Origin: Nitrospirota bacterium
Lineage (GTDB): Bacteria; Nitrospirota; Nitrospiria; JACQCE01
Direction of reading: 5' to 3'
Assembly (NCBI GenBank): GCA_016201765.1
Contig: JACQCE010000084.1
Location: 1 to 63,259 of the forward strand
Length of the DNA: 63,259 nucleotides
Shown: piece by piece, positions 5,372-49,662 of the stretch
Layout: the number at the start of each line of letters is the position of its first letter
Position numbering within the stretch: the stretch's first letter is position 1
Position numbers and translations under genes: made by a program
The notes under the pieces: generated by a model
What the model saw: only the letters and a program-made list of their open reading frames with translations
What the model was told of the DNA's origin: nothing
The model's database searches: none

Positions 5372-5377
5372 GCGCGT

Positions 5378-8443: not shown

Positions 8444-8447
8444 GCCG

Positions 8448-10758: not shown

Positions 10759-10779
10759 TGGCGAGATTCCCCGATCCCC

Positions 10780-10808: not shown

Positions 10809-10860
10809 GTCAACCAGGGGCGGGGAAAATCAACGAAAAGAACGGACGGCGGCGCGGCGG

Positions 10861-13188
10861 TCAGCCGGAAGTCGCTCCGCGCCTGGGCGCCGTTCCCACA
10901 CCGGTCTGTCCGGCGGACCGAGGCAGCCCGGGATCGGACAGAAAGAGGTGGGGAAAATCCGGGGGGGCCAGCACCTGCGAGATGAAGAGATCGATCAGCG
11001 GATCGGCCGGCGCGACGGTCAGGCCCCGTTGGGCGGCCAACTGCCGCAACGCCTGCTCCGTGTCCGGCCCCACCAGTCCGTCCACGCGCCCATGATAGAT
11101 GCGCCGCTCGCGCAACTGGCGCTGCAGCCACCGGACCACCGGGTCCTCCCCGTTGATCGGCCCCGGCCACCGCCAGCCGTTCAGCGGACGCCAGTAGAGC
11201 CGGACCACGCCCGTCAACTCCCGCTCGATCGTGTCGGCCGGTCGGGAGAGAAATCCCACCCCGGGGTCAAGCAGCACGACCCGGCCGGCGACGACCCGGC
11301 TGATCACGACGGGGCGCGGCGGTTCGCCCGGCGCGTCGCCCTTTCTCATGACGATCGCGGGATAATCCAGCTTCAGCAGCTCCTGGACGGTCAGCGGCGC
11401 CTGCAGCAATTCCAGCCGCCGCCCGCCGGCCAGCGCCTCCGGATCAAGACTCAACACGCCGCCCGGTTCCTTCGGCGGCCAGTCGGGCACCGCCCCCCAC
11501 TGGCGCAGCAGCATCAGCAGGGCCGCCCGCTCCATGAGTTCGGGCGAGCCGCTCTTCCCAACGCGAATCACCTCATCGTCATCCACAAACCATGCCCGTT
11601 CCGGCGCGGGGTCCGGAGCGGTCTCGGCGCGAAGCGCCGACGCCGTCTCCCGGCGCGCGTCGACGGTCCGCACATCGGCCGGGACCGAAGCCGCCTGGTC
11701 CGTCCGCACGTGATCCGCTTTCAATGCCACACGCAGCCGGTCGGCCGGGGACGTGTCCGACGCCTTCGGGATCTCAAGCGATGGCGCGCGCGGCGCGGCG
11801 ACCATCACTTCAGCCGGCAGCAGGGGAAGGCGGATCATCGATGTCAGGGAGGGAAGTGGGCGCATCGGACTGTCCGCCGTGGCGATGGGATCTGAAGGGG
11901 TGACGGCAGCCGGTGACGGCGGCTCGGGAAGCGCCGGGGAAAAACGTTCCGGCGCCGCGGGAGTCGGAGCAAGCGGCAGGGCTTCCTGCGAAGCTTCCTG
12001 CCGGGGTGATGGTGCCTGTCCGGTCAGGGGTTGCCGTAACCACGGGTCTTCGACGTCATCCGTCGAAGGAAGGAGGTTGAGTATTTGACCGGGCGCCTGC
12101 GTGGTCGTCTGTGTGGGCGGCGGAATCGGATGGGCGGCCAGGTCGCTGATGGACGGCAGCGGAGGGGCGAGGGGCAGGAGTGGCTCAGACTGTTCGCGGG
12201 CCATGAGTGCGGGCGGAAACCGCTGTTCGAGGGAACCCGTCTTCCACCACATGCCGCCCAATCCGGCCAGCAGCGAGACGAGTCCGATGACGGCCACGCG
12301 CAGCATCGGATCGGACCGGCGTCGAACGGGCTGGATCGGCGTCTCCTGCGTCAGGTAGGAAGGGGGCGGCTCCGTCACCGGCAGAATGGGCGTCAACTCG
12401 CCGACGGCCTGGCTCATCAGATAGCCGGAAATCAGCCGGGTGCCGCGCACGTACGCGGCCAGCAGCGCCCGGTCGCAGAGCGCATTGATCAGCCTGGGCA
12501 CCCCGCCGGAGTAACGATACACCAGCTCCAACGCGGCGGGCTCGAAGTGGACCGCTTCGCGGCCGCCGGCCCGCCACAACCGGTACTGGATGTAATCGGC
12601 CACCTCCTGCGACTCCAGCGGCGTCAAACGGGCGCGAACGACAATGCGCTGGTTGAGCTGGCGGAGCTGCGGCAGTTCCAGCTTGTCCAGCAGCTCCGGC
12701 TGGCCGACCAGCAGAATCTGCAGCAGTTTGGCCCGGGACGTTTCGAGGTTCGACAGCAGCCGGATCTCCTCCAGACACTCCACCGACAGCGTCTGCGCCT
12801 CATCAACGATCAGCGCGGCGTTGCCGCCCTGCATGAGCTGCTCGAGCAAGAACTGGTTGAGCCCGTCCGTCAGAATTTTTTTCGAATAACTCTGATCGCC
12901 CACGCCGAAATCATGGTTGATCGACTGGAGCAGTTCGACGGTCGTCAGGTTCGGGTTGAAGACCAGGGCGCTCTTGACGCGCGGCCCCAATTGCTCGATG
13001 AGCAGGCGGGAGAGGGTGGTCTTCCCCGTGCCGACCTCGCCGGTCAGCACCATGAAACCTTTGCGCTCCCTGACGGTGTAGAGCGCCTGGTTGAACGCCT
13101 CTTCGTGGCGGGTCGTGAAAAAAAAGAAGTGCGGGTCCGGGGTGGATTGAAACGGGAGGCGGCGAAACTGGAAAAACTGTTGATACAT
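10861..13188 (-). CDS. gspA: GspA/ExeA-like AAA+ ATPase with C-terminal peptidoglycan-binding domain
   Basis: MYQQFFQFRRLPFQSTPDPHFFF matches the ExeA N-terminus. Walker A GEVGTGKTT. A TM and Pro-rich spacer. C-terminal PG_binding_1-like RWLQRQLRERRIYHGRVDGLVGPDTEQALRQL. Start at the internal Met (13188) is preferred to the TTG at 13230. Confidence 0.8.
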   Translation of the reverse strand: MYQQFFQFRRLPFQSTPDPHFFFFTTRHEEAFNQALYTVRERKGFMVLTGEVGTGKTTLSRLLIEQLGPRVKSALVFNPNLTTVELLQSINHDFGVGDQSYSKKILTDGLNQFLLEQLMQGGNAALIVDEAQTLSVECLEEIRLLSNLETSRAKLLQILLVGQPELLDKLELPQLRQLNQRIVVRARLTPLESQEVADYIQYRLWRAGGREAVHFEPAALELVYRYSGGVPRLINALCDRALLAAYVRGTRLISGYLMSQAVGELTPILPVTEPPPSYLTQETPIQPVRRRSDPMLRVAVIGLVSLLAGLGGMWWKTGSLEQRFPPALMAREQSEPLLPLAPPLPSISDLAAHPIPPPTQTTTQAPGQILNLLPSTDDVEDPWLRQPLTGQAPSPRQEASQEALPLAPTPAAPERFSPALPEPPSPAAVTPSDPIATADSPMRPLPSLTSMIRLPLLPAEVMVAAPRAPSLEIPKASDTSPADRLRVALKADHVRTDQAASVPADVRTVDARRETASALRAETAPDPAPERAWFVDDDEVIRVGKSGSPELMERAALLMLLRQWGAVPDWPPKEPGGVLSLDPEALAGGRRLELLQAPLTVQELLKLDYPAIVMRKGDAPGEPPRPVVISRVVAGRVVLLDPGVGFLSRPADTIERELTGVVRLYWRPLNGWRWPGPINGEDPVVRWLQRQLRERRIYHGRVDGLVGPDTEQALRQLAAQRGLTVAPADPLIDLFISQVLAPPDFPHLFLSDPGLPRSAGQTGVGTAPRRGATSG

Positions 13189-13282
13189 GCCGGGTGGCGG
13201 TACTTTGTCATAGAACACCTGCCTTGTCAATAGATTTTGTGGTATAAAGGGGCGACCACCACAAAGGCTGGGGTATCGACTG

Positions 13283-13723
13283 ATGGCGAGATGGCTGTTA
13301 ATGGGGGTGTTGCTGCTGGCCGCGTTCGGGGCCGGCTACCTGGCCGGCGGCCGCGAACAGCGGAGCGTGCAGCAGAATCTGCAGCAGCTCAAGGATGAGA
13401 TGGCGCGGCGGACGGTGGAACTGGAACGGCACGTGACGGTCGCGCGCATGCGCGGCCACCTGCTCGAAATGCGCGACGCGCTGACGACCGCCCAGACCCA
13501 CATCGAACACCAGAATTTCGGCATGGCCCGCGAGGCGCTGGCCAGCGCGCAGCGCTCGTTTCAGTCGGCCCTTCAGCTGGATGAAAAAAATTCGCTGGCC
13601 CGTTTACGGCCGATCGAACGGGAGCTGGCGCGCTTGAAGGAGGCGCGCACGTTCGGTCCGTCGTCGATCGATACCATCGACCGGATCAAACAGCAAATCC
13701 GGGAGAACGGCGAATCACGGTAA
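13283..13723 (+). CDS. hypothetical membrane-anchored coiled-coil protein
   Basis: An N-terminal TM (WLLMGVLLLAAFGAGYLAG) followed by heptad-like charged sequence. No recognisable family. Confidence 0.4.
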   Translation: MARWLLMGVLLLAAFGAGYLAGGREQRSVQQNLQQLKDEMARRTVELERHVTVARMRGHLLEMRDALTTAQTHIEHQNFGMAREALASAQRSFQSALQLDEKNSLARLRPIERELARLKEARTFGPSSIDTIDRIKQQIRENGESR

Positions 13724-13727
13724 TCGA

Positions 13728-15911
13728 CTAGGAAGACCGCGCCAGTGCCGACGGGAGGTCGGCATAGAGCACCACGCGGTTGCGCCCCTGGGCCTTGGCG
13801 CCATAAAGCGCCTTGTCCGCCACGCTGACCAGTTGATCGGGACCGGCGGCATCGGTCGGCGCCGACGCAATCCCGATGCTCAGCGTCACCGGAATGGCCA
13901 CCCCTGCCAGGCCGAATCGTCCCCGTTCAATCACCTTCCGGATCCGCTCCGCCATCTTGGCCGCCTGCGCGGCGGAGGTCTTGGGCAGCAGCACGGCAAA
14001 TTCCTCCCCGCCGTAACGCCCCACCGTGTCCACCTTCCGCGCCAGTTGCTTGAGCAACGCGGCCACCTGCTTGAGGATGCGGTCCCCGGCCTGGTGGCCG
14101 TGGGTGTCGTTGATCCGCTTGAAGTGATCCAGATCGATCATCATCAACGCGAGGGATTCGCCGTGGCGCTGCGCCTGCTCCCACTCATAATGCAGCCGGC
14201 CGTGGAAGGCCCGGTGATTCAGAATGGCCGTCAACCCGTCGATGGAGGCCAGCCGCTCCACCTCTTCATGGAGCTGGGCGTCGGTGATCGCCTGGGCGGC
14301 CTGGTTGCAGAGAATCGACAGCAGATGCTGGTGGGTGGCGGTAAAGGCCGACGGCACATCGGACAGACACAAGAGCAGGCCGATCACGCGATCCTGCGCG
14401 ATCAGCGGAAGACCGAGGAACGATCGCGCGGGCAGCCGAAGCTTCGATTTCGACGGGAAAAACCGGGTCGGCTGCTCATCCGACAGGTGCGACAGCAGGA
14501 CCGGCTGGCGGTTTTTCACCACCAGACTGACCAGGCCGTCCGTCAGGGCGAAGGTTTGATTGAGGGCGCGTTCCTTGTGCTGGCCCTCGGCCACGCGAAC
14601 CTCCGCGCGCCGCTCCCCCTCGTCAAGCAGACAGAGGATGCTCGTATCCGCCTGGACGAGCTTTTGGGTCAACCCGGTCATCGTTTCGAGACGATGCTGC
14701 AGATCGAGCCGCGAGTTGAGCAGCTGGCTCGCCTCCAGCAGCCGGGAAATTTCGCCCCCTTTCTCCGCCATGCGCCGCTGCTGCCGCAAATCCTCCAGTT
14801 GGGCCCGCAGGCAGCCGGCCGTCTGGAGCAGGAGTTGCTCCTCCCGGTCGCCCAACACCCCCGTGCGCTGGCTGTCGACACAGAGCACGCCTTCCAACCG
14901 GCCCTCCGCCATCATCGGCATCACCAGCAGCGACCGGACGGCGGCCGGGATACGATAGTAGTCCGGCAATTGCCGGGTCGGATCCAGCCGGCCGTAGAGG
15001 CAGGGTTTGCGCTCCTTGGCGGCCCATCCGATCGGCCCATGACCCACGGCCACGGACCATTCGTCGCGATAGTCCTTCGCAGCCCCCCCCACGCACAGTT
15101 CCAGGTGCAGCCGGTCGTCGCCGGGCTGATAGAGAAACAGCACGCAGCTGCGCGCCTGCGGGATGGCCTGCTTGAGCAGGCCCAGCAATTGGCGCCCCCG
15201 CTCCCGAAAGCGGACCCGCAGCCACGCGGCCTGCTCCTCCTGAGGGGTTTGAAACAGCAGCGGCGGCGCCTGCGCGGGATCGAAGAACCGCTCCCGTTGT
15301 TGCTGCTCCTCCAAGACGGAGGCCGCGCGCGCCGTCTGCCGGCGCAGCGACTCCAGCCTCCGCCAGACGATCAAGGGCACGCCCTGCGTGAGCCCGATCA
15401 ACAACACCCCCTGCCAGATTGGAAACGCGGTCCAGCCGTGCACGTTCAGCAACCACAGGAAGGCGGCACAGAGCGCCGCCGCCACGACCACCTGAAACCA
15501 GCGAAGGGGCAGCACCAGCGACGCCCCCAGGGTCAGCAACGGATAGATGATCAGGGCCGGGGTCGTGCCGTCAGCGGAGGCCCAGCGAAACAACCACTCC
15601 TGCACCATCGGCAGGGCCATCAGGAAGAGCGCGCCGCGCCGCCTTGGAGAAAAATAGCCCCGTTGAAGCCCCCGCCACACCAGCCATCCAGCGGCGGCAA
15701 ACCAGAGCAGGCCCATCACGACGGCCAGCGCGGTTGACGGAGGACCGTTCCGCCAGATCATGAACTGGCCAAGCACAAGGGCAACGGCCACCGCCATCAC
15801 GGCGGAACCGAATACGATCACCCCCATCGGCCGTCCGCCATCCCGACCGCCATCCCGGCTGCCAACACGGCTCAATGCCCGGCCGCGTCCATGCGATTTC
15901 AGATCCGCCAC
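13728..15911 (-). CDS. membrane-bound GAF-GAF-GGDEF diguanylate cyclase
   Basis: About 6 TM segments in the N-terminal region and two GAF-like regions. The GGDEF domain has LTAILNHRAF, DLDHFKRINDTHGH, an RKVD I-site 5 residues before the active site, and GGEEF. Confidence 0.85.
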   Translation of the reverse strand: MADLKSHGRGRALSRVGSRDGGRDGGRPMGVIVFGSAVMAVAVALVLGQFMIWRNGPPSTALAVVMGLLWFAAAGWLVWRGLQRGYFSPRRRGALFLMALPMVQEWLFRWASADGTTPALIIYPLLTLGASLVLPLRWFQVVVAAALCAAFLWLLNVHGWTAFPIWQGVLLIGLTQGVPLIVWRRLESLRRQTARAASVLEEQQQRERFFDPAQAPPLLFQTPQEEQAAWLRVRFRERGRQLLGLLKQAIPQARSCVLFLYQPGDDRLHLELCVGGAAKDYRDEWSVAVGHGPIGWAAKERKPCLYGRLDPTRQLPDYYRIPAAVRSLLVMPMMAEGRLEGVLCVDSQRTGVLGDREEQLLLQTAGCLRAQLEDLRQQRRMAEKGGEISRLLEASQLLNSRLDLQHRLETMTGLTQKLVQADTSILCLLDEGERRAEVRVAEGQHKERALNQTFALTDGLVSLVVKNRQPVLLSHLSDEQPTRFFPSKSKLRLPARSFLGLPLIAQDRVIGLLLCLSDVPSAFTATHQHLLSILCNQAAQAITDAQLHEEVERLASIDGLTAILNHRAFHGRLHYEWEQAQRHGESLALMMIDLDHFKRINDTHGHQAGDRILKQVAALLKQLARKVDTVGRYGGEEFAVLLPKTSAAQAAKMAERIRKVIERGRFGLAGVAIPVTLSIGIASAPTDAAGPDQLVSVADKALYGAKAQGRNRVVLYADLPSALARSS

Positions 15912-15929
15912 AACCGGTCCGTCCTCTTA

Positions 15930-16151
15930 TTACTTTCCCTCCGGCGCCTCCGGTGGAGCCGCCTGGGCCTTCTGACTGGCCGGCGGCCCCCCGGACGGTG
16001 ATGGCCGCGCGCGCCGGAGCTTTCGTTGCAACCGGCGCTGCCGCTTATGCATCAGACGGAAAACGGCCCCGTCACCGCCGCCCGCAGGCGCGGCGGTCAG
16101 TTTTCGGGTCAGGCGATTCAGGCGTTGCTCCAATTGCTGAACGGTCGGCAT
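15930..16151 (-). CDS. small Arg/Lys-rich hypothetical protein (73 aa)
   Basis: ATG 16151 is preceded by GGAGGAG with 6-nt spacing. Sits between the pseudopilin and the cyclase on the same strand. Sequence MPTVQQLEQRLNRLTRKL...HKRQRRLQRKLRRAR. Confidence 0.4.
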   Translation of the reverse strand: MPTVQQLEQRLNRLTRKLTAAPAGGGDGAVFRLMHKRQRRLQRKLRRARPSPSGGPPASQKAQAAPPEAPEGK

Positions 16152-16183
16152 GGTGCTCTCCTCCTCTGTGTGGCAGGGGCCGA

Positions 16184-16780
16184 TCACCACGTTCGATACG
16201 GGGTGTCGTCCAATGCCGTGTCTTCGCTGGTGGTATGAAGGTCATAGACATCATCCCCGCACCAGGATGCCGCATCGGGGTCGTCACGATAGCAGCGCAG
16301 TCCCCACTCGCGCGTTTGCGTTATGGGATCGATGGGAATGGCCCGCAGATAGCGCCTGATGTCGAGGCCGTTTACGGTGGCCTGTTCTCCGGACAATTTG
16401 ACTTCCAGCAGCGTCTCAAGCGTTTTAGGGTAGCCAAAATCGCTGCTGACATCCTTGCAGGTCAATTGGTTGACCTTGCACAACTCCCCCAACAGCTGGT
16501 TGCCGGCCCGGTTCCAATCGAGGTGAAACTGGTCGATGGCTTGACGGACGGTGCGCAGGTCCTGGCGCAATTCGAGTTCGCGCACCCGCTTGGTGTTCAT
16601 TTTGACCAACGGCATGGCAACGGTGGCCAGCACCAGTAGAATCGCCAGCGTCACCATCAGCTCAAGGAGGGTCACGCCCCGGGCGCCCGCAATGAGCCGG
16701 ACGACCAATCGACGACCGGGGGAACAGGAGGGGAGGATTCCCTGCACGGAATTCCAGCGTTGCCGTCGCCGGCCGATCAT
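16184..16780 (-). CDS. GspG-like pseudopilin paralogue (orphan)
   Basis: GVTLLELMVTLAILLVLATVAMP prepilin motif. QAIDQFHLD and RRYLRAIPIDP correspond to GspG motifs. The start is uncertain: ATG 16780, or an in-frame TTG nearer the cleavage site. Confidence 0.75.
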   Translation of the reverse strand: MIGRRRQRWNSVQGILPSCSPGRRLVVRLIAGARGVTLLELMVTLAILLVLATVAMPLVKMNTKRVRELELRQDLRTVRQAIDQFHLDWNRAGNQLLGELCKVNQLTCKDVSSDFGYPKTLETLLEVKLSGEQATVNGLDIRRYLRAIPIDPITQTREWGLRCYRDDPDAASWCGDDVYDLHTTSEDTALDDTPYRTW

Positions 16781-16878
16781 TGCGCTCCGCAAGGACAACG
16801 TCCGCTTAGTGTGCGCGGGCGGCACGGTCGGCCACCGATCGGCGGACCGCAATTCCCACGACAGGGCTGCTCACACAC

Positions 16879-19329
16879 CTACCGAACAACGACGACTCCG
16901 CGGCGGGCCGTCACCGACACCGGCGCATGATCGGGGCCGGTGAACGCGCCCGGCTCCACCGTGACCGATGACGCACCCGAGGCCTTGCTTCGAAACACCA
17001 GGGTGCAGAGCACGCCCGAGCCTTGCGCGCCGCGCACGTCCGACAGACGGGTGATGCGCAGATCAATTTGGCCGGGTTCGGACGAGGGAATCGCGGAAAA
17101 CGACGTGGCCCACCCCTGCTGGCTCAACAACCCGCCTTCAACCGCATGATCAAATTCCAGCACGGCGGGATCGTAGGTCACGACAAACTCGGCCTCGGAC
17201 AAGCCCGACACCGCATCCGCCCGGATGATCATGTTCGCCTGCTGGCCTTCGGCCACCGAGAGTTGCTCCGGCGCCACGCGGATCATCGCGCTCGGAGCGG
17301 GCGGCGACAGACCAGGCAGATAGGCGCCCGAGGGAAAGGGCGGCGGCGTTCGAACAGGAGGCGGAGGCATCGGAGGCACCGGCACCTCCTGCTGGACAGG
17401 CGGTTCCGGCATCGGCGGCGGTTCGAACATCGGCGGCGGCTGGACAAACTCGCCCGAATCCCCGCCCGAACCGCCCCCACCACCCGATGCCCCGCCGAAC
17501 GACAGCCCGGAGAAGAGCGGGGCGGTCGAATAGGCCTCTTCCGTCCCCGACCAGAAGGCCAGCAGATCGTCGCCGGGCGGTTCCAGTCGTCGGACCACGT
17601 GCGGCGTGATGGTCATGATCAGATCGGTTTTCACCTTTTGCTGCTGGGTATGAGAAAACAATTTGCCAAGGAACGGAAGATCACCCAGCACGGGGATCTT
17701 GTTGGCCGATGTCCGATCCTGATCACCGATCAAGCCACCGATGACCACCGTCTCCCCGTCGTGCACATTGAGGGTCGTCTCAGCCGTCCGGTTGCCAAAT
17801 TTGAACTGTTTGGTTTCCGGAACCAAGTCGCCCAGCGTCGTCACATCAAGGCTGAGTTTCATCCGCACGTCATTGTTCAGATAAATGATCGGCTCAATGC
17901 TCACCTTGATGCCGGTGTCCTTGTACTCCGTCGACGTCGTGACCGTGGTGCCCCCCACCGTCGTCGCCGTGCCGCTGTTGGAGCTGGACGTGCTGAGCAG
18001 AATCGGCACCTTGTCGCCGACGTTGATTTTTGCCGTGCCGCCGTTGAGCACCCGCAACCGTGGATTGACCAGGGTCTGGGCGTCGGAATCCTGCTTGATC
18101 AGATCCACCACCACCGTGGGCAGCGTCAGGAAGACGTTGCTGTTGGTCAACTTGGTGAGCTGGTTCAACGTCATGGTCCCGCCGGGAGCCGTGGCCCCAG
18201 GCGGCCCGATGCCGCCCGAGACCGTATTGCTCGGCACCAACTGCCACCCGTACGTGAGCAGTTTCGTCCGATCCACCTCGATGACTTCCACATCGAACAT
18301 CACCTCGGCCACCGCCCGGTCGTTCGCCGCGATGATCTTGGCCGCCAGGTCGAGCTTGTCGGTCGAGTCCCGCATGACGATGGCGTTCAAATCGTTGTTG
18401 ACGAACACGCGCCGCGTGTCCAGCATCGTCCGCAGCAGGTTGACCATCTCCTTGGCCGGCACCACCGACATGTAAAAGGTGCGGATCTGCAGATCTTCGT
18501 ACTGGTTCGCCTTGGCCTTGGTCTTGGGCGCGATCAGAATCGTTTTCTCATTGATCCGCTTCATGAACAGATTGTTGGTGGCCAGGATCAGGTTCACCGC
18601 CTGGGGAAACGAGGCGTCCTTGAGGAAGACGGTGACCGGATCGTCGCGCACGTCCCGATCGAATAAGATATTGATGCCGTAACTCTTGGAGAGCAACTCG
18701 AACACTTCCTTCAGGCGGGCGCCCTGGAATTTGATCGTGATCGGTTCCTTCGAGCTCAGGGCCAGCCCCTCTGCCGAGTTGGCCGTCCGCTTTCGTTCGG
18801 TCAGCTGCATGACCGCCTGCTGGGCGTCGACCAGCGACGGGTTTTTCTCCAACGCTGATTCGAATTCGGCCAGCGCCTCGTCCAGCCGGCCGGCCTTCAT
18901 CAACTGGCGGCCGGCGGCCACGCTGACATCGGCCTGCCGGGCCTGCACCGCCTCGTCAAACGCGGCACGGTGCTCCGGCTTGGCGGGGTCATACGCAATC
19001 GCCCGCTTGAACTCATCGAGCGCCGGCTCGATCTGGTGGTCTTTCAGGAGCGTCCGGCCCCGTTCGTAATGGATGGTGGCGGCCTTGAGCCGGGCCTGGT
19101 CCAACTGCCGGCGCAATGCGGGGTCATCAGGAGAGCCCTTGACGGCTTGCTCGTACAGGACGACGGCGCCGTCCCAATTACCGGCCGCGCCGAGCTGGTC
19201 GGCCAGCCGTGTCTCCCGGTTGGCCAGGCAGCCGGCGACCATGAGGGCCGCGACGCCGCACACAAACAGCGACCGCCCCCGCCGCAGGCCACGCCACAGG
19301 ATGGATCGTCGAGCCATCGACGACATCAT
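16879..19329 (-). CDS. lipoprotein secretin with N-terminal TPR region and a C-terminal Pro-rich linker plus cohesin-like domain
   Basis: Lipobox LMVAGC and TPR-like repeats. STN/Secretin_N modules (ITIKFQGARLKEVFELL..., LQIRTFYMSVVPAKEMVNLL...). Secretin core (VVIGGLIGDQDRTSANKIPVLGDLPFLGKLFS). Then a G/P-rich linker and a 135-aa beta-rich domain (FVVTYDPAVLEFDHAV...GVLCTLVFRSKASG). Confidence 0.8.
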   Translation of the reverse strand: MMSSMARRSILWRGLRRGRSLFVCGVAALMVAGCLANRETRLADQLGAAGNWDGAVVLYEQAVKGSPDDPALRRQLDQARLKAATIHYERGRTLLKDHQIEPALDEFKRAIAYDPAKPEHRAAFDEAVQARQADVSVAAGRQLMKAGRLDEALAEFESALEKNPSLVDAQQAVMQLTERKRTANSAEGLALSSKEPITIKFQGARLKEVFELLSKSYGINILFDRDVRDDPVTVFLKDASFPQAVNLILATNNLFMKRINEKTILIAPKTKAKANQYEDLQIRTFYMSVVPAKEMVNLLRTMLDTRRVFVNNDLNAIVMRDSTDKLDLAAKIIAANDRAVAEVMFDVEVIEVDRTKLLTYGWQLVPSNTVSGGIGPPGATAPGGTMTLNQLTKLTNSNVFLTLPTVVVDLIKQDSDAQTLVNPRLRVLNGGTAKINVGDKVPILLSTSSSNSGTATTVGGTTVTTSTEYKDTGIKVSIEPIIYLNNDVRMKLSLDVTTLGDLVPETKQFKFGNRTAETTLNVHDGETVVIGGLIGDQDRTSANKIPVLGDLPFLGKLFSHTQQQKVKTDLIMTITPHVVRRLEPPGDDLLAFWSGTEEAYSTAPLFSGLSFGGASGGGGGSGGDSGEFVQPPPMFEPPPMPEPPVQQEVPVPPMPPPPVRTPPPFPSGAYLPGLSPPAPSAMIRVAPEQLSVAEGQQANMIIRADAVSGLSEAEFVVTYDPAVLEFDHAVEGGLLSQQGWATSFSAIPSSEPGQIDLRITRLSDVRGAQGSGVLCTLVFRSKASGASSVTVEPGAFTGPDHAPVSVTARRGVVVVR

Positions 19330-22989: not shown

Positions 22990-23048
22990 GAAATTGGGAC
23001 GTGTCCCTATTCTTGCCACGGGTGAATCCATTCAACGGACCCACTACC
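22990..23048. repeat. half copy (right arm) of the GGGACACGTCCC palindromic repeat element
   Basis: GAAATTGGGACGTGTCCCTATTCTTGCCACGGGTGAATCCATTCAACGGACCCACTACC aligns with the right half of the full copy at 45419-45557. Confidence 0.8.
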
Positions 23049-29154: not shown

Positions 29155-29267
29155 GGTAGTGGGTCAGTTTCACCGTGACCTGTCTCAAAAATAGGGACAC
29201 GTCCCAATTTCCTCATGCGGCGCGCGGCAATCAACGAAATTGGGACGTGTCCCTATTTTGGCCACGG
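29155..29267. repeat. truncated copy of the GGGACACGTCCC palindromic repeat element (right terminal repeat missing)
   Basis: About 90% identical to 45419-45531. It ends exactly at the zapA stop codon. Confidence 0.85.
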
Positions 29268-29579
29268 TTAATGCAAATGAAGATCGTCGAATTCCTCTTC
29301 AATGCTCTCGATCAAATCCCGCGTTTTGCGGCCGATCTGCCGGATCGCCATCTGATGGTGCTGCTGTTCATCGGCCAGCCTCCGGTAGTCGTGCGCGATG
29401 TTGATCGCCGACAGGACCGCCAGCCGGCGCAGATCGTTGGTTTTCGTCTTGGCCGCGACTTCCCGGATTTTTTTGTCCACGTACCGGGCCAACTCCCGGA
29501 CGTAGGGCTCGTCGGCGTCGCCGCGCAGGGTGTATTGCTGGCCGAAAATTTCGACCACCACCGGCTTGGACGTCTTCAT
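29268..29579 (-). CDS. zapA: cell division protein ZapA
   Basis: 103 aa. VVVEIFGQQYTLRGDADEPYVRELARYVDKKIREV...LRRLAVLSAINIAHDY is the ZapA signature. ATGA overlap with the upstream gene. Confidence 0.85.
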   Translation of the reverse strand: MKTSKPVVVEIFGQQYTLRGDADEPYVRELARYVDKKIREVAAKTKTNDLRRLAVLSAINIAHDYRRLADEQQHHQMAIRQIGRKTRDLIESIEEEFDDLHLH

Positions 29580-43416: not shown

Positions 43417-43491
43417 TGGTGGGCGATGCTGGTATCGAACCAGCGACCTCTTGCGTGTGAAGCAAGCGCTCTACCACTGAGCTAATCGCCC
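43417..43491 (-). tRNA. tRNA-Val (anticodon CAC), CCA encoded
   Basis: Manual cloverleaf: GGGCGAT TA GCTC AGTGGTA GAGC G CTTGC TTCACAC GCAAG AGGTC GCTGG TTCGATA CCAGC ATCGCCC A CCA. Confidence 0.9.
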
Positions 43492-43548: not shown

Positions 43549-45240
43549 TCAGTGTGATCTGCTATAGAGGCTGCCGTCTTTTTCCAACGGATGGCGATCG
43601 AGTTTAGACTCCATAGCCTTGGAGATATCCAGCGTCATAAGAAAATCTGTTAGTTTATCCAGTGACGCGGAGTCCAGTTTGCTGATGAAGTCAGGCATCA
43701 AGCTCTTTCCCCCCGGTGACATCGGCTCGAATCCCTGCACAATAAACGCACTGGGAACCATAATCGACTCCATGATGTACTCCCTTGGTGTCTTTGCATG
43801 GGCTTTGCCGGCTTTCACAACCGCCTGATACTCCGGAGAGGCAATCCGCTGAGCAGCGCTCGTACCGCTCACCAATAACGGGCCGATTGCACCCATCCTG
43901 GCAAAGCTTACCTCTGGTATTTTATGACACGCAGCACATCCTAGCTTTGTAATGATCTGAACAGCCGAATCATCTGGTCCTATCGTCAGGTTTTTATCTT
44001 GCCGGGCCTGGTTCGTTAGAGGTAGATACACCCGTTCGGCCGGTAGAATAAACTTCTCATAGGCGGCCTGCATGACGCGAATGGGCGGCGGCTGTTGCCC
44101 ATCGTAAACATATAACCATCTGTTTACCAAAATCATTTCGCTGATCGTCAAGCTGATCGGGGGCCTATTAATTGTCGCGTAGGGACTTTCCCGATCATTG
44201 GTGCCTTTCACACCGAATCCCGGCACCACATAGCACGACGTGCAGACATTCGATTCCGCCAAATACTCCATGGCTGTCGTGGCCCGGCCGCTGCCCTGAA
44301 ACGCCTCGGTCTGTATGGTATCGGGATGCAGATACCCCGGTTCTTTAATCCGCGTGGCTGCCCGCTTGATGATGCCAGACAAATTTGGCGCCCGGTCACC
44401 GATATCAGTCGGTTTGAAGGTATGACAAAGAGGACATTGCCCTTTGCCAATCCCCCGTCCCGCTAAACCGGCTGACCCAAAAATAAGATACTCACCGGCT
44501 TTGACCAACTCCGCTTCTGACATTGATTCAAGTTTTGTCATCATCAAATCGGCATCGCCACCAACAGAGGCGGCACGATCAAGCTCATAAGAGTCTTTTA
44601 TCTCATTTGTTCTATCGACGATTTGAAGCAATGATTGTTCAGCTCCCAGACGAACACTGATGTCATCATCTTTTAGTGCGGAGACGAGTGGTCGGATTCG
44701 AGGGTCTCTCAACTGCCCCAGCGCTTCGGCAGCATGTAGGCGAACACCAACTGAGTAATCAGACAGCATGCCGATGATCAAATTGATCACGCGGTAATCA
44801 TCAAACCAAACCAACGCATCAATGGCTTCCCGACGAACAGCTGAGTCCTCGTCCTTTAAAACCAACATCAAGGGATCGATGGCCTGCTCCTTCTTGATCC
44901 GACCCAATGCCCGAGCAGCCAGCAAACGGACCCGAGAATCCCTGTCCTTCAGTGCATGGATGAGCAGTTTCACCGTTCGATCATCCGGCATTTCGGTCAA
45001 CGCGGCCACGGCAGTGGTTGCGACATCCGAATTCCCATCTTTGAGGGTGGCAATCAGCGGCTTTACAGCACGCGGATCCTTTAACTGATATAGCGTGACA
45101 ACAGCGAGGCGACGAGTTTCAGGATTGGCACTCTTTAAGTCAGACAACGCCGATTGAAGATCTCCCGCAACACCTTCAGCGGTACCGCCCAGACCACCAA
45201 CCAGTATGAGACACAATCCAACCAGGTAGCGGATTTTCAT
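43549..45240 (-). CDS. HEAT-repeat protein fused to a di-haem c-type cytochrome domain (secreted)
   Basis: Signal peptide. About six PBS-lyase/HEAT repeats (DPRAVKPLIATLKD..., RVRLLAARALGRI...). Two CxxCH motifs (CPLCH, CAACH). GAGGTGA Shine-Dalgarno 5 nt before the ATG. G+C is visibly lower than in the flanks. Confidence 0.75.
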   Translation of the reverse strand: MKIRYLVGLCLILVGGLGGTAEGVAGDLQSALSDLKSANPETRRLAVVTLYQLKDPRAVKPLIATLKDGNSDVATTAVAALTEMPDDRTVKLLIHALKDRDSRVRLLAARALGRIKKEQAIDPLMLVLKDEDSAVRREAIDALVWFDDYRVINLIIGMLSDYSVGVRLHAAEALGQLRDPRIRPLVSALKDDDISVRLGAEQSLLQIVDRTNEIKDSYELDRAASVGGDADLMMTKLESMSEAELVKAGEYLIFGSAGLAGRGIGKGQCPLCHTFKPTDIGDRAPNLSGIIKRAATRIKEPGYLHPDTIQTEAFQGSGRATTAMEYLAESNVCTSCYVVPGFGVKGTNDRESPYATINRPPISLTISEMILVNRWLYVYDGQQPPPIRVMQAAYEKFILPAERVYLPLTNQARQDKNLTIGPDDSAVQIITKLGCAACHKIPEVSFARMGAIGPLLVSGTSAAQRIASPEYQAVVKAGKAHAKTPREYIMESIMVPSAFIVQGFEPMSPGGKSLMPDFISKLDSASLDKLTDFLMTLDISKAMESKLDRHPLEKDGSLYSRSH

Positions 45241-45271
45241 GGCATCACCTCGATACAGGGGAGAAGAACAT

Positions 45272-45349
45272 CAGCGACCTCTTGCGTGTGAAGCAAGCGC
45301 TCTACCCTTCGTGGGAGGCCTCAGGGCAAGCCACTGAGCTAATCGCCCG
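45272..45349 (-). pseudogene. truncated tRNA-Val copy (positions 1 to about 52) with a 26-nt insertion in the D-loop and no T-arm
   Basis: CAGCGACCTCTTGCGTGTGAAGCAAGCGCTCTACC and ACTGAGCTAATCGCCCG are identical to 43441-43475 and 43476-43492 respectively. CTTCGTGGGAGGCCTCAGGGCAAGCC is inserted between them. Confidence 0.75.
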
Positions 45350-45374
45350 TCTTGATGGCTTGATTGGAGCGGTC

Positions 45375-45403
45375 ATTGTAATGAATGGCCGGAACGGTGT
45401 CAA
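45375..45403 (-). promoter_or_regulatory. sigma70 consensus promoter upstream of the broken tRNA-Val copy (now facing the cytochrome gene)
   Basis: Minus strand reads TTGACA-17 nt-TACAAT. Like the intact tRNA promoter, it is preceded by a GCATGCG string. Confidence 0.55.
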
Positions 45404-45418
45404 TCGCATGCCGTTGGC

Positions 45419-45557
45419 GGTAGTGGGTCAGTTTCACCGCAACCGGCTCAAAAATAGGGACACGTCCCAATTTCCTCGTGCGACGCACGGCACGCAACGA
45501 AATTGGGACGTGTCCCTATTTTTGCCACGGTGGAATCCAGCAAACTGACCCACTACC
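45419..45557. repeat. complete 139-bp palindromic repeat element (MITE/REP-like)
   Basis: 16-bp perfect terminal inverted repeats GGTAGTGGGTCAGTTT / AAACTGACCCACTACC. The inner 26-bp inverted repeat CAAAAATAGGGACACGTCCCAATTTC is itself centred on a near-palindrome. Confidence 0.85.
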
Positions 45558-45743
45558 CCGTTGGCACATTCAAAGCTGATCGGGGCCGTCTCTGGTCGTT
45601 CAAAAATGTGCGCCATGGAGCAAAACTGCCTATTTCAAATCGATGAAGGTCATGGTGACAACCTGAATGAACAGGAATTCAACCCATTGATTTTCCATTG
45701 CTTGAATACCCTCAAGCCATTCGGGTCCGCCAGGGCATGGTAC

Positions 45744-45759
45744 TGGCACATCCCTTGCT
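45744..45759 (+). promoter_or_regulatory. sigma54 (-24/-12)-type promoter candidate
   Basis: TGGCAC-ATCCC-TTGCT has exact consensus GG/GC spacing. It lies about 90 nt upstream of the riboswitch. Confidence 0.4.
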
Positions 45760-45847
45760 TCATTTCTATACCCGTGTGTGGTTTGCCTCTGCACACAGAG
45801 GATAGACAGCCGGTCCGCTCCCCCCGGAATCCGGGCCGGCTCATGAG

Positions 45848-45945
45848 ACACGCCACCGAAAGAGCAAACCCGTCGTAAGGCGGGGACGCAGAGCCACCGG
45901 TCCCGGACCGCCCTCACGGGATCGAGGAGCCGCCGAAGTGGATGT
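45848..45945 (+). promoter_or_regulatory. c-di-GMP-I (GEMM-I) riboswitch
   Basis: GCAAACC-CGTC-GTAA-GGCGG-GGACGCAGAGCCACCGG...GCCG compares with the Vc2 core GGCAAACC-hairpin(GAAA)-GGGACGCAAAGCCUCCGG. The P2 stem CCCGTC/GGCGGG is capped by a GNRA loop and a P3 stem follows. Confidence 0.75.
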
Positions 45946-45948
45946 GGG

Positions 45949-45991
45949 GAAAGCCCATTCGCCTCTGGTGAATGGGCTTTCCTTCTGTCTG
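45949..45991 (+). terminator. riboswitch expression-platform terminator
   Basis: 12-bp perfect stem GAAAGCCCATTC-9 nt-GAATGGGCTTTC followed by CTTCTGTCT. Confidence 0.6.
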
Positions 45992-46037
45992 AAATTGAAC
46001 ACGGGCACACCCTCAGAGCAGACCCCAAAAACACACA

Positions 46038-47591
46038 ATGCCACGACCGACCTCCGTGCAGCCCCATCCGGACGCCACCCTCCTGATTGTCGATGACGAT
46101 CCGGGCGTGCAACAGTCCTGCCGTCTCCTCCTCCGCCGGCAGGGTTACCGCACGCTCGAAGCGCAGGACGGCGCCACGGCGCTGTGCATGGTCAAAACGC
46201 ACCCGATCGATGTCTGCCTGATCGACCTGACGCTCCCCGACGGCCACGGGCTCGACCTGCTCGAACGGCTGCGCGAACTGCAACCGCAGGCGCTGGCCAT
46301 TGTGATCACGGGCGATCAGGAGCGCGCGCCTTTACTTCGCTCGCTGCAACTGGGCGTGAAAAATTACCTCCACAAACCGTTTGCCGCGGAACAACTGGTC
46401 CATATGGTCGATCACGCCATCGAGGAGGACCGGCAGGCGAAAAACCGCATCCGCGCGAATATCGTCGGCCCGCTGTTCGAACTGAGCGAACGGTTTCTCT
46501 CCGACATCGATTTGCACGCAACGTTCCAGGGCCTCGTCCAGATGGCCGCGCAGCAGACGGACGCGGACACGGCCTCGCTCATGGTGCTCGACGACTCGAC
46601 GCAGACGCTCGCGATCGAGGCGGCCGTCGGCCTGCCGGCGGACATTGTCGCCGCGGCGCGCCTCCGGCTGGGCGAGGGGATCGCCGGCTGGGTCGCCGCG
46701 ACGGGGGAACCGCTGATCCTGATTCCCGGCGTCTGCGCGCACGCGGATGTGCGGGGACGCCTGCTGCGCCGGGAGTTGACCGCAACGCTCTGCGTGCCCC
46801 TGCTGCGCAAGGACCGGGTGGTGGGAGTGCTCAACGTGGGCAAACACCGTCCCGGCGCCTCGTTCACACAGGGCGACATCGAGATGGTCTCGGTGCTCTG
46901 CCGGCAGGCGGCCGTGCTGGTCGACAACGTCCGGCTGTTCAACGAGGTGTCGGCAAAGGTCGGCGAGCTGGAAACCGCGCATTTCGACACGATCAAGGCG
47001 CTCGCCGGCGCGCTGGAGAGCAAGGATTTCTACACGCGCCACCACAGCGACCGCACCGTGGTCCACGCCGAACTGACCGGACAACGACTCGGTCTGTCGA
47101 TCGAGGAGCGGCTGCACCTGCGCTACGCCGCGATCCTGCACGACATCGGCAAGATCGGCATCCCGGAGACCATCCTCAACAAGCCGGCCCGTCTGACGGA
47201 GGAGGAATACGCGCTCATGAAGCGCCACCCGCTCATCGGCGCGGCCATCGTGGAGCACGTCGCCTTTTTACGCCCCGTGCTGCCGCTGATCCGCCACGAT
47301 CACGAACGGTGGGACGGCCTCGGCTATCCCGACGGGCTCCAGGGGGAGGCGATTCCCATCGGTGCGCGGATCATCGCCGTGGTGGACGCCTATGACGCCA
47401 TGGCGGTCGACCGGATCTATCGCAAAGCGCCGGGCCACGAGTTCGCGCTGTGTGAACTCCGCCGCTGCGCCGGCACACAGTTCGATCCCGCGGTGGTCGA
47501 GGCGTTTTTATCGATTGTCATGCACCCCGGTTCCGGGCCGCCGGCGACCGATCACGAACGCGGCGGCACGGGGGTGTTTTACCCCAACTGA
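46038..47591 (+). CDS. response regulator with REC-GAF-HD-GYP domains (c-di-GMP phosphodiesterase)
   Basis: REC (LLIVDDD..., CLIDLTLPDG, KPF), a GAF region, and HD-GYP (HHSDRT, LHDIGKIGIP, HHERWDGLGYPDGL). Confidence 0.85.
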   Translation: MPRPTSVQPHPDATLLIVDDDPGVQQSCRLLLRRQGYRTLEAQDGATALCMVKTHPIDVCLIDLTLPDGHGLDLLERLRELQPQALAIVITGDQERAPLLRSLQLGVKNYLHKPFAAEQLVHMVDHAIEEDRQAKNRIRANIVGPLFELSERFLSDIDLHATFQGLVQMAAQQTDADTASLMVLDDSTQTLAIEAAVGLPADIVAAARLRLGEGIAGWVAATGEPLILIPGVCAHADVRGRLLRRELTATLCVPLLRKDRVVGVLNVGKHRPGASFTQGDIEMVSVLCRQAAVLVDNVRLFNEVSAKVGELETAHFDTIKALAGALESKDFYTRHHSDRTVVHAELTGQRLGLSIEERLHLRYAAILHDIGKIGIPETILNKPARLTEEEYALMKRHPLIGAAIVEHVAFLRPVLPLIRHDHERWDGLGYPDGLQGEAIPIGARIIAVVDAYDAMAVDRIYRKAPGHEFALCELRRCAGTQFDPAVVEAFLSIVMHPGSGPPATDHERGGTGVFYPN

Positions 47592-48775
47592 ATCACCGCG
47601 CACTTCAAGTAATCCGTCTCGGGCACGGCCAGCAGCACCGGATGATCGACGCCCTGCCCCCGCCAGGCCAGCAACCGGGCCGGCCGACCCACATCCACCG
47701 CCGCCTCCAGCAGTAACGCGCGGAATAATTCCGGCTGCAGATGATAGGAGCAGGAGCAGGTCAGCAGAAAGCCGCCGGGCCGCAACAACTTCATCGCCCG
47801 CAGATTGATCTCCTTGTAGCCGCGCAGCGCGTCGGCCACCCGTGTCCGGCTTCTCACAAAAGAGGGCGGATCGAGGATCACCAGATCGAACCGCTCTTCG
47901 TCGTCGCTGCGCCGTTTCAGCTCATCAAAGAGATTGCCCGCGACGAACCGGCAGCGATCGGCCAGGCCGTTGGCGGCCGCGTGCGCCCGGGCCGCCGCCA
48001 CCGCATCCTCGGACAGATCGATGCCGACCACCTCGGCGGCGCCGGCGCGCGCCGCGTGCAAACTCCACAAGCCGGTATAGCAGGCGCCGTCCAGGACGCG
48101 ACCACCAGCCGCCAATCGATCAACCAGCGCGTAGTTGTCGGCCTGATCAAGATAAAGTCCCGTCTTCTGGCCGTTCAAACAATCCACCTGCACATCAAAA
48201 CCGAAGAGACGGAGCGAGACGACACCATCGTGCGCGCCGGCAAGCCATCGTTTCTCCTGCGGCAACCCCTCCTGCTTCCGGGCGTTGACCTCGTGGCGGG
48301 CCAGCATGGCGGCAGACCGGCAGAGCGATTGAAGAATCGGCGTGATCACCGGCAGCACGCGGTCGATGCCGGCGGTGAGCGCCTGCACGACCAGCAATTC
48401 GCCGTACCGGTCGACGATCAAACCCGGCAATCCATCCCCCTCGCTAAAGATGAGCCGGCAGGCGGGCGCATCCGGTTTCAATCGGGCGCGCAAGTCGATC
48501 GCCCGACGGATCCGGCCGGTCCACCACGCTTCGTCGATCGGTTCGTCCCGCCAGGTGAGCAATCGAACGAGAATGACCGAGGCCGGATTGGCGTAGCCGC
48601 GCCCGACGAAGCGGCCGCGATGATCGACCACGTCAACCAGGGCGCCGGGCTCCAGATCGGCCGGCACGGCAGCCACTTCGTTACGGTAGATCCAGGGATG
48701 GCCCGACAGCGGCCGGTCCGCCTCACCGGACTTGAGCGTCAGCGTGATGGTATGAGCACGCGCGGCGCGACTCAT
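47579..48775 (-). CDS. rlmI: class I SAM-dependent rRNA m5C methyltransferase (RlmI-like)
   Basis: PUA-like N-terminus (HPWIYRNEV), a SAM-binding region (VLDGACYTGLWSLHAA) and DLVILDPPSF. ATG 48775 follows the stop of the upstream gene. Confidence 0.75.
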   Translation of the reverse strand: MSRAARAHTITLTLKSGEADRPLSGHPWIYRNEVAAVPADLEPGALVDVVDHRGRFVGRGYANPASVILVRLLTWRDEPIDEAWWTGRIRRAIDLRARLKPDAPACRLIFSEGDGLPGLIVDRYGELLVVQALTAGIDRVLPVITPILQSLCRSAAMLARHEVNARKQEGLPQEKRWLAGAHDGVVSLRLFGFDVQVDCLNGQKTGLYLDQADNYALVDRLAAGGRVLDGACYTGLWSLHAARAGAAEVVGIDLSEDAVAAARAHAAANGLADRCRFVAGNLFDELKRRSDDEERFDLVILDPPSFVRSRTRVADALRGYKEINLRAMKLLRPGGFLLTCSCSYHLQPELFRALLLEAAVDVGRPARLLAWRGQGVDHPVLLAVPETDYLKCAVIQLG

Positions 48776-49662
48776 CCCGCCACCGTCAATACCACGCCCA
48801 GCAGCATGACCAGCGCGCCGGCCAGGCGTTGCACGATTCGAGGTTCGCCGAACCACCAGGCGCCGTAGGCCATGCCGAAGAGCATGCTCGTCCGCTTGAT
48901 CGCGATCATATAGGCCACGTTGGCCTGAACGATCGCCAGCACGTGCGCCACGATCGAGACGGCGTCAAACCCGCCGATCGCCATCAAGTCCCGGCGCCAC
49001 ACGGACGAGAGACCGCGCCATCCGATCGCAACGACGACCACCGGCAGAAACGCCAGCGCCAACGCCAGAAAATAGACGGCCGCAAAAAAGATCGGCCCGG
49101 AATGCAGGATCGCCTGCTTGCCAAGATTCGACGTCACGCTGTAAATCGCGGCCGCGGCCATCATGTAGCGGGAGCCCCGTTCCCGCCAGAGCAGCCGGAA
49201 CGGCTGCCACACCCCCTCGCGCCACGTGTGGCCGTGGAGCAGAAATGCGCCCAGCACAATGCACCCGATCCCCGCACCACCCACCATCGACGGGATTTCA
49301 CCCAGCATAACGGCCGAAGTGCCGAGCAGGAAGACCGGCGTCAGGGAGAGCAACGGCAGCGTGAGCGAGAGCGGCGACGCCTGCAATGCCTTCACATAGA
49401 AGACCAGCGCCAGCAACTCCAGCGGAATCATCACGACGAGCAGCCGCCAGAAGGTCCGATCGACCGGGGGGATTTCGATCAGCAACAACAGCGCCACCAG
49501 CCATGGCGCGGCGTAGAGCAAACGCGCCCACGCGGCCAGGTACGGCAGGGCCGCCGCATCGTGCGTCGTCGGCTCGCCATGCCGGCTGAAAAATTTTTTG
49601 ATCAGCGCGTCGGCCGTCGCCAGAGCAAATGCCGATAACAACGCATATCCGACCCATGCCAT
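48772..49662 (-). CDS. EamA/DMT-family transporter
   Basis: About 10 predicted TM helices arranged as two EamA-like halves. Confidence 0.75.
   Translation of the reverse strand: MAWVGYALLSAFALATADALIKKFFSRHGEPTTHDAAALPYLAAWARLLYAAPWLVALLLLIEIPPVDRTFWRLLVVMIPLELLALVFYVKALQASPLSLTLPLLSLTPVFLLGTSAVMLGEIPSMVGGAGIGCIVLGAFLLHGHTWREGVWQPFRLLWRERGSRYMMAAAAIYSVTSNLGKQAILHSGPIFFAAVYFLALALAFLPVVVVAIGWRGLSSVWRRDLMAIGGFDAVSIVAHVLAIVQANVAYMIAIKRTSMLFGMAYGAWWFGEPRIVQRLAGALVMLLGVVLTVAG

Follow-up and report, generated by a model that had tools for sequence, protein, structure and literature searches.

A GEMM-I-class aptamer and a sigma-54-type promoter motif upstream of a REC-GAF-HD-GYP gene of a Nitrospirota bacterium

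In the RNAs of the GEMM-I riboswitch class (Rfam RF01051, c-di-GMP-I), G20 contacts the Hoogsteen edge of one guanine (G-alpha) of cyclic di-GMP (c-di-GMP) and sets the specificity for this ligand, A47 intercalates, and C92 is joined to G-beta by Watson-Crick pairing; in the riboswitches for cyclic GMP-AMP (cGAMP), an A replaces G20 (A14 of Gs1761) (PMC6140456). The terminator is separate from the aptamer in Cd1, an experimentally established OFF switch, while the two are mutually exclusive in the ON switch pilM (PMC9262584), and where GEMM elements are of the ON type, the terminator's 5′ arm overlaps the 3′ side of P2 (PMC1950547). Here we describe an element of this class in a 63,259-nt contig of a Nitrospirota bacterium (JACQCE010000084.1; the whole stretch is referred to as the window hereafter), where it lies in the leader of a gene encoding a 517-aa protein with REC, GAF and HD-GYP domains. 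The element is a further example of a riboswitch class already known, before a gene of a type already known for it: GEMM RNAs upstream of HD-GYP and GGDEF genes are already found in Table 2 of the 2007 description of GEMM (PMC1950547), so that novelty of the arrangement as such is not supported. The type of promoter that precedes the riboswitch, namely a sigma-54-type one, is a modest novelty; in a limited literature search, no paper was found in which a riboswitch for cyclic dinucleotides is driven by a sigma-54 promoter.

The aptamer, its gene and its promoter

When the whole window was compared with Rfam by cmscan, RF01051 matched positions 45853–45937 of the plus strand with 45.6 bits (gathering threshold, 35; E = 1e-5), and this was the sole riboswitch hit in the 63 kb. 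The GEMM-I core that the initial annotation had recognized in the leader of the REC-GAF-HD-GYP gene is thereby borne out by the covariance comparison that it had proposed, and the strings it quoted were all found: GCAAACC (45864–45870), CCCGTC-GTAA-GGCGGG and GGACGCAGAGCCACCGG. The first hairpin, GC-AAA-CCCGTC-GTAA-GGCGGG-GAC-GC, consists of a 2-bp and a 6-bp stem with a 3-nt internal loop and a GNRA tetraloop. The complete aptamer includes P1, whose 5′ and 3′ strands occupy 45849–45856 and 45938–45946, respectively. The region 45770–46040 was predicted to fold with −125.3 kcal/mol (z = −5.6 relative to shuffled sequences), and in this minimum free energy (MFE) fold P1 closes the aptamer, the GUAA-capped hairpin and P2 are formed, and a hairpin of 16–17 bp comes straight after. 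In the alignment of 10 distinct aptamer sequences (26 pairs), 94.6% of the cells were paired and 9 pairs changed on both sides; these values, in which the covariation counts derive from related sequences, were reached by none of 500 shuffles. By score, fold and covariation, the element is a member of the GEMM-I class.

Among the GEMM-I subtypes, the one found here has a GYRA tetraloop (GUAA) and lacks the 11-nt receptor, a combination described in the founding GEMM paper (PMC1950547). The score against RF03167 (c-di-GMP-I-GGC) was higher, 48.5 bits, because P2 is short and receptor-less. Membership of RF03167 was nevertheless rejected: the score is below the gathering threshold of that family (59 bits), and position 47 lacks the G that marks the variant, A20 and A47 being present instead. 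The other Rfam hits in the leader were sub-threshold and were discarded as chance matches to microRNA hairpins.

The features of the locus are listed in Table 1.

Table 1. Features of the leader and of the gene (window positions; all on the plus strand)
Feature	Position	Strand	Basis
Sigma-54-type −24/−12 promoter, TGGCAC-N5-TTGCT	45744–45759	+	Exact consensus match, ortholog conservation
Conserved leader hairpin, AGCCGGTCCG/CGGGCCGGCT, loop with CCCGGAA (CCCGGAAAU)	45808–45841	+	Alignment A4
Complete aptamer including P1	45849–45946	+	RF01051, MFE fold, covariation
A at the equivalent of Vc2 G20	45863	+	cmscan alignment, model position 11 (G), posterior '*'
Inter-hairpin linker AGA, not AAA (A47, G48, A49)	45890–45892	+	cmscan alignment
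Equivalent of C92, conserved	45933	+	GCCGAA against consensus gCCgaa; invariant in alignment A2
Expression-platform hairpin, 16–17 bp, loop TCT, then pyrimidine-rich TTCTGTCTG; putative attenuator or terminator	45947–45983	+	Inverted repeat, fold, alignment A3
C-rich, G-poor stretch, end of leader and first codons; candidate rut-like region	45988–46087	+	Composition
REC-GAF-HD-GYP phosphodiesterase gene, 517 aa, single-gene unit	46038–47591	+	Pfam

The close relatives of the protein (66–91% identity) are found in metagenome-assembled genomes of Nitrospiria/Nitrospirota and in soil and sediment metagenomes; the contig index searched does not contain the identical protein. Each of the 12 distinct related loci of Nitrospirota type for which upstream DNA was available has one sigma-54 motif, the aptamer and a hairpin ahead of the ortholog. 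RF01051 matches above the gathering threshold were located before the ortholog in the loci L001, L003, L081–L083, L162, L164–L168, L172 and L173; the three low-GC loci L171, L174 and L175, whose proteins are about 48% identical to that of the window and whose synteny is different, carry aptamers of 53–54 bits, and the scores in 14 related loci range from 41.2 to 54.9 bits. No aptamer was found in the REC-GAF-HD-GYP relatives of 35% identity or less, nor in L169 and L170 (46–49%). A custom model (R1) applied to about 160 other HD-GYP loci (0.84 Mb) gave one distant example and three weak hits with E > 0.01. The sole other GEMM-I-like match, at 708–807 of L055 (Caldicoprobacter oshimai), is standard in its G20 and its AAA linker; it is located 1.7 kb upstream of the HD-GYP match and probably regulates another gene. 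The association of GEMM-I with HD-GYP genes seen here is lineage-specific.

For the 517-aa protein, Pfam gave Response_reg at residues 16–124 (4e-26), GAF at 158–295 (GAF_2, 2e-18) and HD_5 at 322–486 (7.5e-37), and the REC residues are intact (D20/D21, D63, T91 and K113), which agrees with the annotated order of a phosphorylatable REC domain and a GAF domain ahead of HD-GYP. The HD...GYP motifs are also there: the closest solved structures are PmGH (4mcw, 1.4e-45) and then V-cGAP3 (5z7c, 3.8e-37), and in the alignment to PmGH the HD, H, ERWDGLGYP and D motifs are present in the HD_5 domain. The metal motif at 47268–47309 (residues ~411–424) is HDHERWDGLGYP, in contrast to HHE(R/K)xDGxGYP in PmGH and V-cGAP3; in the HDHE of the present protein, one metal-binding His of the HH pair is changed to Asp. 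A scan of 120 family members gave a scorable motif in 83, with the forms DH, HQ and canonical HH in 40, 34 and 9 of them, respectively. The segment DRIYRK is of the RxxR form, which fits the c-di-GMP type Rxx(K/R), as do 111 of the 114 scorable members of the same 120, and the enzyme does not have the Rxx(Q/N) by which PmxA, a cGAMP-specific enzyme, is marked. However, RxxR is also compatible with cGAMP hydrolysis, because V-cGAP3, deposited as 3′3′-cGAMP-specific phosphodiesterase 3 of V. cholerae, likewise has it; a cyclic dinucleotide is the presumptive substrate, and the enzyme sequence does not decide between the ligands. The regulated unit is this one gene, because the gene downstream (47579–48856, minus strand) is convergent.

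Upstream of the aptamer, TGGCACATCCCTTGCT is the sole exact sigma-54 consensus in the window. A lone match of this kind is not significant, as 15 of 100 shuffled sequences contain one; the motif gains its significance from its conservation across orthologs. Each of nine ortholog loci (56 kb, searched on both strands) contains a single TGGCA[CT]-N5-TTGC; it is invariably on the strand of the gene, and its −12 GC lies 38–130 nt upstream of the aptamer. Of the low-GC loci, L175 has TGGCATGGTAGTTGC and L174 a near match, CGGCATGATCTTTGC (CGGCAT-N5-TTGC). The motif, already noticed in the initial annotation and conserved in every ortholog, is taken here as a real promoter on the strength of this sequence conservation, and from the usual sigma-54 spacing transcription is predicted to start at about 45769–45771, upstream of the aptamer. 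The riboswitch-less loci L169 (1891–1905) and L170 (~1909–1923) also carry −24/−12 motifs, TGGCATCCGGTTTGC and TGGCCTGAGTTTTGC, 70–110 nt before the start codon. Sigma-54 control thus seems ancestral in the gene family, with the riboswitch gained or lost later. Between promoter and aptamer, the conserved leader hairpin has 92% of its cells paired in alignment A4, with one pair exchanged from G:C to A:U or the reverse in three sequences and another varying among U:G, C:G and U:A; this hairpin is absent from the low-GC relatives.

The ligand-binding pocket

The Vc2 numbering was assigned to the Rfam columns through an alignment of the Vc2 and Gs1761 sequences, with a cross-check against the contact list of 4YAZ. 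An A is found at the equivalent of position 20 in all 12 distinct related aptamers, the low-GC ones included. A45890 and C45933 fall on the conserved consensus positions for A47 and C92, C45933 being what we take to be C92 from the alignment to the Vc2 sequence. The AGA linker is common to the nine high-GC orthologs, and L171, L174 and L175 have AAA; P2 is closed by an A.C pair and not by A:U, A49 facing C45931. The core was initially annotated as close to that of Vc2, which is right for the fold, A47 and C92 and needs correction for G20, the AAA linker and the P2 closing pair. Judged by its sequence, the aptamer possesses A20, the one sequence criterion of GEMM-Ib, and departs from two criteria of the class, G20 and the AAA linker; to the latter, 2 exceptions exist in 322 GEMM instances (PMC1950547). 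The combined A20 + G48 + A49.C pocket is fixed in one Nitrospirota clade and is found only upstream of the HD-GYP gene under study.

The presence of A20 does not fix the ligand, because A20 RNAs span the range from cGAMP-selective (Gs1761) to c-di-GMP-preferring. Vc2 G20A binds c-di-GMP with 53 nM and cGAMP with 120 nM, and the natural Cbe 1-2 (A20) binds them with 30 nM and 463 nM, respectively (PMC6140456); the A20 RNAs of Geobacter are up to ~1200-fold cGAMP-selective (PMC6456294). A20 variants and ambiguous specificity are thus well documented, and a study of A20 aptamers by nuclear magnetic resonance and isothermal titration calorimetry leaves the structural determinants of selectivity open (PMC6140456). 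The initial statement that the RNA senses c-di-GMP is overstated: the residue that defines c-di-GMP recognition, G20, is an A in the window and in all 12 relatives. We consider that the physiological ligand is probably c-di-GMP, with possible bispecificity; another ligand, or none, seems unlikely.

That the aptamer is selective for cGAMP appears rather unlikely, and we also hold as improbable the wider reading in which a GEMM-Ib-type riboswitch for 3′,3′-cGAMP controls an HD-GYP protein acting as a cGAMP 'eraser', or in which cGAMP cross-regulates the turnover of c-di-GMP. The A20/A47/C92 pocket is that of the Geobacter cGAMP riboswitches (PMC6140456), A20 is unchanged in lineages with a protein identity as low as 48%, and V-cGAP3, with its RxxR, is the second-best solved catalytic homologue; yet A20 alone is not selective, since Vc2 G20A and Cbe 1-2 bind c-di-GMP as well or better, and the enzyme is without the Rxx(Q/N) of PmxA. 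Moreover, the only GGDEF protein of the window has canonical motifs with the canonical Asp and not the Hypr-type residue, and in the literature that we searched, Hypr GGDEF and Nitrospirota are linked by one passing co-mention only. No cGAMP synthase was seen in the 63 kb of the window. The signature residue of the Hypr-type GGDEF is reportedly Ser. If this wider reading were true, it would mean cGAMP signalling in Nitrospirota, and if the ligand were cGAMP but the substrate c-di-GMP, the element would embody a cross-talk of two messengers. It is likewise doubtful, although conceivable from the sequence, that the A20 + G48 + A49.C pocket defines a GEMM-I subclass of changed specificity, selective for 3′,3′-cGAMP or for another dinucleotide such as a linear product of the pGpG/pApG type; such a subclass would point to a pathway in Nitrospirota that uses a dinucleotide other than c-di-GMP and has its 'eraser' under direct RNA and sigma-54 control. 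The conserved A20/AGA pocket is a natural test case for the selectivity between c-di-GMP and cGAMP in GEMM-I RNAs.

The hairpin, the sign of the switch and its feedback

The expression-platform hairpin starts one nucleotide past the 3′ strand of P1; it was annotated as following the aptamer immediately, which is correct with respect to this strand but not to the end of the Rfam match. Its 16-nt arms (45948–45963 and 45967–45982) are 94% complementary across a 3-nt loop and contain a perfect Watson-Crick run of 13 bp (GGAAAGCCCATTC/GAATGGGCTTTCC), and the predicted energy is −29.5 kcal/mol. In alignment A3, 95.8% of the cells are paired and three pairs change on both sides, the compensatory exchanges being AAAG/CTTT versus AGAG/CTCT and ATTC/GAAT versus ATCC/GGAT. 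In L171, L174 and L175, the homologous hairpins are followed by TTTTTTGTTT or TTTTTTATTT, which contain the U-run (UUUUUUGUUU) expected of a terminator, so that these are textbook terminators, e.g. AAAAAACCTATCCTC...GAGGATAGGTTTTTTGTTT; the U-tract of L003 has such a run in part (UUUCUUUUGUG). The initial description of the window hairpin as a terminator with a 12-bp perfect stem is accordingly right in that the hairpin is strong and conserved, but its U-tract is weak and a terminator scan called none. No Shine-Dalgarno sequence was evident, and translational control is therefore not indicated.

Aptamer and hairpin do not overlap, and they coexist in every full-length MFE fold. In L171, L174 and L175, the 5′ strand of the aptamer, ACCGAUAAGAG, contains A20 and has 8–11 nt of complementarity to the loop of the terminator and the upper part of its 5′ arm. 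The resulting antiterminator duplex has −17 to −19 kcal/mol as compared with about −6 ± 2 for shuffled sequences, of which 0–1 per 1000 reach it, and it is the MFE fold over 17–35 nt of transcript growth (in L175, until the U-tract is made). In the window, an alternative in which CGCCGAAGUGGAUG pairs with CAUUCGCCUCUGGUG, i.e. the aptamer tail and the P1 3′ strand with the hairpin's 5′ arm, disrupts the aptamer and is the MFE fold only when the 3′ end lies at +31 to +36 (−48.7 versus −43.7 kcal/mol); similar short MFE windows were found in seven of the nine high-GC orthologs. The alternative folding that the initial annotation had suggested examining is thus clear in the three low-GC loci, while in the window clade it is brief and at the level of shuffles. 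From the architecture, the short MFE windows and the homology to L171, L174 and L175, the riboswitch is probably an OFF switch, in which the ligand would lead to termination. An OFF switch before a degrading enzyme would create a double-negative, i.e. positive, feedback. The homeostatic loop that was initially annotated needs an ON switch, and the architecture and the low-GC antiterminators speak for the opposite sign.

The explanation that we prefer, with slightly more confidence than doubt for the whole of it, combines sigma-54, a GEMM-I OFF switch and HD-GYP in positive feedback, as follows. A sigma-54 promoter driven by an enhancer-binding protein would transcribe the gene with a leader of about 270 nt carrying the GEMM-I-class riboswitch. 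The aptamer would bind a 3′,3′-cyclic dinucleotide, most likely c-di-GMP and possibly also, or preferentially, 3′,3′-cGAMP, given A20. The bound ligand would lock P1 and leave the hairpin at 45947–45983 free to form, and transcription would stop before the open reading frame (ORF), possibly with Rho; without ligand, the hairpin's 5′ arm would be engaged for a time by aptamer strands, and read-through would be more frequent. The enzyme would thus be made when the enhancer-binding protein fires and the dinucleotide is low, and would then be gated post-translationally by REC (Asp63) and GAF. The positive feedback would sharpen a low/high switch rather than provide homeostasis.

Several observations weigh against this mechanism. 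The core deviates from the consensus at three places (A20, G48 and A49.C), ligand binding being a prediction, and no gene for an enhancer-binding protein (Sigma54_activat) was found among the 33 large window ORFs scanned, although the activator may be encoded elsewhere in the genome. The antiterminator of the window clade is no better than shuffles in most orthologs (a fraction of 0.05–0.95 is at least as stable), and both candidate pairings, one of the hairpin 5′ arm with the P1 3′ strand and one of the hairpin loop with the 5′ strand of the aptamer, were rejected as not standing above shuffles. In the window, the antiterminator prevails as the MFE fold over no more than about 6 nt, the alternative falls short of the hairpin in stability by about 13 kcal/mol, and the OFF sign is in part carried over from homologous relatives whose proteins are 48% identical. 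As for termination, a pattern scan of 45200–46200 reported 0 terminators; the U-tract is poor (tail UUCUGUCU; TTCTGTCT) and has no run of 4–5 U, and the tails of L083 and L082 are GTCTGTCC or GACTGTCC; GUCUGUCC or GACUGUCC. Because of this poor U-tract, termination in the window may be weak or Rho-assisted. The stretch 45988–46087 has 41 C and 18 G per 100 nt (C/G 2.28 versus 1.02 in the rest of the ORF), an enrichment that goes with the poorest U-tracts among the orthologs and is absent in L003, L165 and L171; by its composition it may be a Rho utilization (rut) site, which makes Rho-assisted termination plausible.

The weak or absent U-tracts of the window, L082 and L083, the C-rich stretch that tracks them, the lack of a visible Shine-Dalgarno sequence for sequestration and the three core deviations would also suit a hairpin that is not an intrinsic terminator, whether it serves Rho-dependent termination or the stability or processing of the mRNA, or belongs to a decaying relic aptamer. 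We judge this to be unlikely, if still worth bearing in mind: a relic is at odds with an aptamer that is near-invariant while its flanks diverge and whose helices covary, and with the textbook terminators formed by the homologous hairpin in L171, L174 and L175, while a contribution of Rho is compatible with the preferred explanation and not opposed to it. A c-di-GMP-selective ON riboswitch that induces the phosphodiesterase as c-di-GMP rises, giving homeostatic negative feedback, also seems unlikely. Many GEMM instances are predicted to be ON switches (PMC1950547), a canonical diguanylate cyclase is also encoded in the window, and when P1 is open, its 3′ strand can pair with the tail CUGUC and extend the hairpin, so that the ligand-free hairpin could terminate better. 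However, the terminators of ON-type GEMM instances overlap the 3′ side of P2, whereas the present hairpin comes after P1 and coexists with the aptamer; the antiterminators of the relatives consume aptamer strands; and with A in place of G20 in all members, selectivity for c-di-GMP is not expected.

If the OFF sign is true, the circuit would be a positive-feedback latch for the decision between planktonic and biofilm life, and not a thermostat. One transcript would then receive four inputs, namely the enhancer-binding protein through sigma-54, the dinucleotide through the RNA, phosphorylation through REC and a ligand through GAF, all of which would converge on an enzyme that destroys the messenger. 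Nitrospirota, with nitrite oxidizers and the relatives of comammox bacteria among them, are important for nitrogen cycling and in wastewater biofilms. To our knowledge, their second-messenger circuitry is almost unstudied.

Genomic surroundings and comparison with known systems

The window also encodes a GAF-GAF-GGDEF membrane protein (13728–15911, minus strand) with the canonical motifs GHQAGD...GGEEF. It is flanked by a type IV pilus/MSHA-like cluster (1742–19329, especially 6731–8494, minus strand) with PilM_2, T2SSF, a T2SSE ATPase and two secretins, in which the T2SSE ATPase has a c-di-GMP-binding MshEN domain. The canonical GGDEF and the MshEN ATPase show that conventional c-di-GMP signalling exists in this organism. 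In L162 (1–1999) and L164 (1–1646), the divergent upstream neighbours encode a FIST-domain protein and a PAS-GGDEF-EAL protein, so that there the riboswitch-led HD-GYP gene adjoins other genes of c-di-GMP turnover.

A palindromic intergenic repeat with the core TAGGGACACGTCCCAAT occurs at 45419–45557, ~29156–29291 and ~22993–23009, that is, in two full copies and one half copy (5 core matches versus 0.09 expected in the window). The copy at 45.4 kb is a 139-nt inverted repeat, some 190 nt ahead of the sigma-54 promoter. The element looks REP/MITE-like (repetitive extragenic palindrome or miniature inverted-repeat transposable element) and did not appear when the leaders of the orthologous loci were aligned. 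A tRNA gene with the putative anticodon CAC (Val) precedes the aptamer by about 370 nt in L001 and L003. In the window, the tRNA gene (43420–43491) is separated from the promoter by the palindrome and by a gene for a 563-aa HEAT-repeat protein (43549–45240, minus strand) with a weakly cytochrome-c-like C-terminus, which together look like a lineage-specific insertion.

Among the known HD-GYP phosphodiesterases, PmGH, the RpfG-type REC-HD-GYP proteins, V-cGAP3 and PmxA share with the present protein an HD_5 domain with the HD, H, GYP and D motifs, and the Rxx(K/R) motif is present here as RIYR. The GAF-HD-GYP part aligns with PmGH (4mcw) over residues 146–493; in contrast to PmGH, an N-terminal REC domain is added, and HDHE replaces the usual HHE before RWDGxGYP.

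With regard to the RNA, the element resembles Vc2 and RF01051 in P1, in the 2-bp + 6-bp hairpin with its AAA/GAC internal loop, in the GUAA tetraloop and in P2, and the RF01051 riboswitches in general in its score above the gathering threshold, its location in the 5′ untranslated region and the retention of A47 and C92. It differs from them in A for G20, the AGA linker for AAA and the A.C pair closing P2, and, when Cd1 is also considered, in the poor U-tract, the sigma-54-type promoter and the Nitrospirota host. A short P2 without a tetraloop receptor is shared with RF03167, the variant of which has G20 and G47 (GCGAAG), whereas the window has A20, A47 and G48 (GCAGAG). The GEMM-Ib RNAs (Gs1761 and Gm0970/pilM) and the bispecific Cbe 1-2 have the same fold and an A at position 20; however, the GEMM-Ib RNAs of Geobacter are ON switches before cytochrome and pilus genes and are accompanied by a Hypr GGDEF synthase, while the logic of the present element appears OFF-like and its gene encodes a phosphodiesterase. 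In the separation of the terminator hairpin from the aptamer, the element is like the OFF switch Cd1 of C. difficile.

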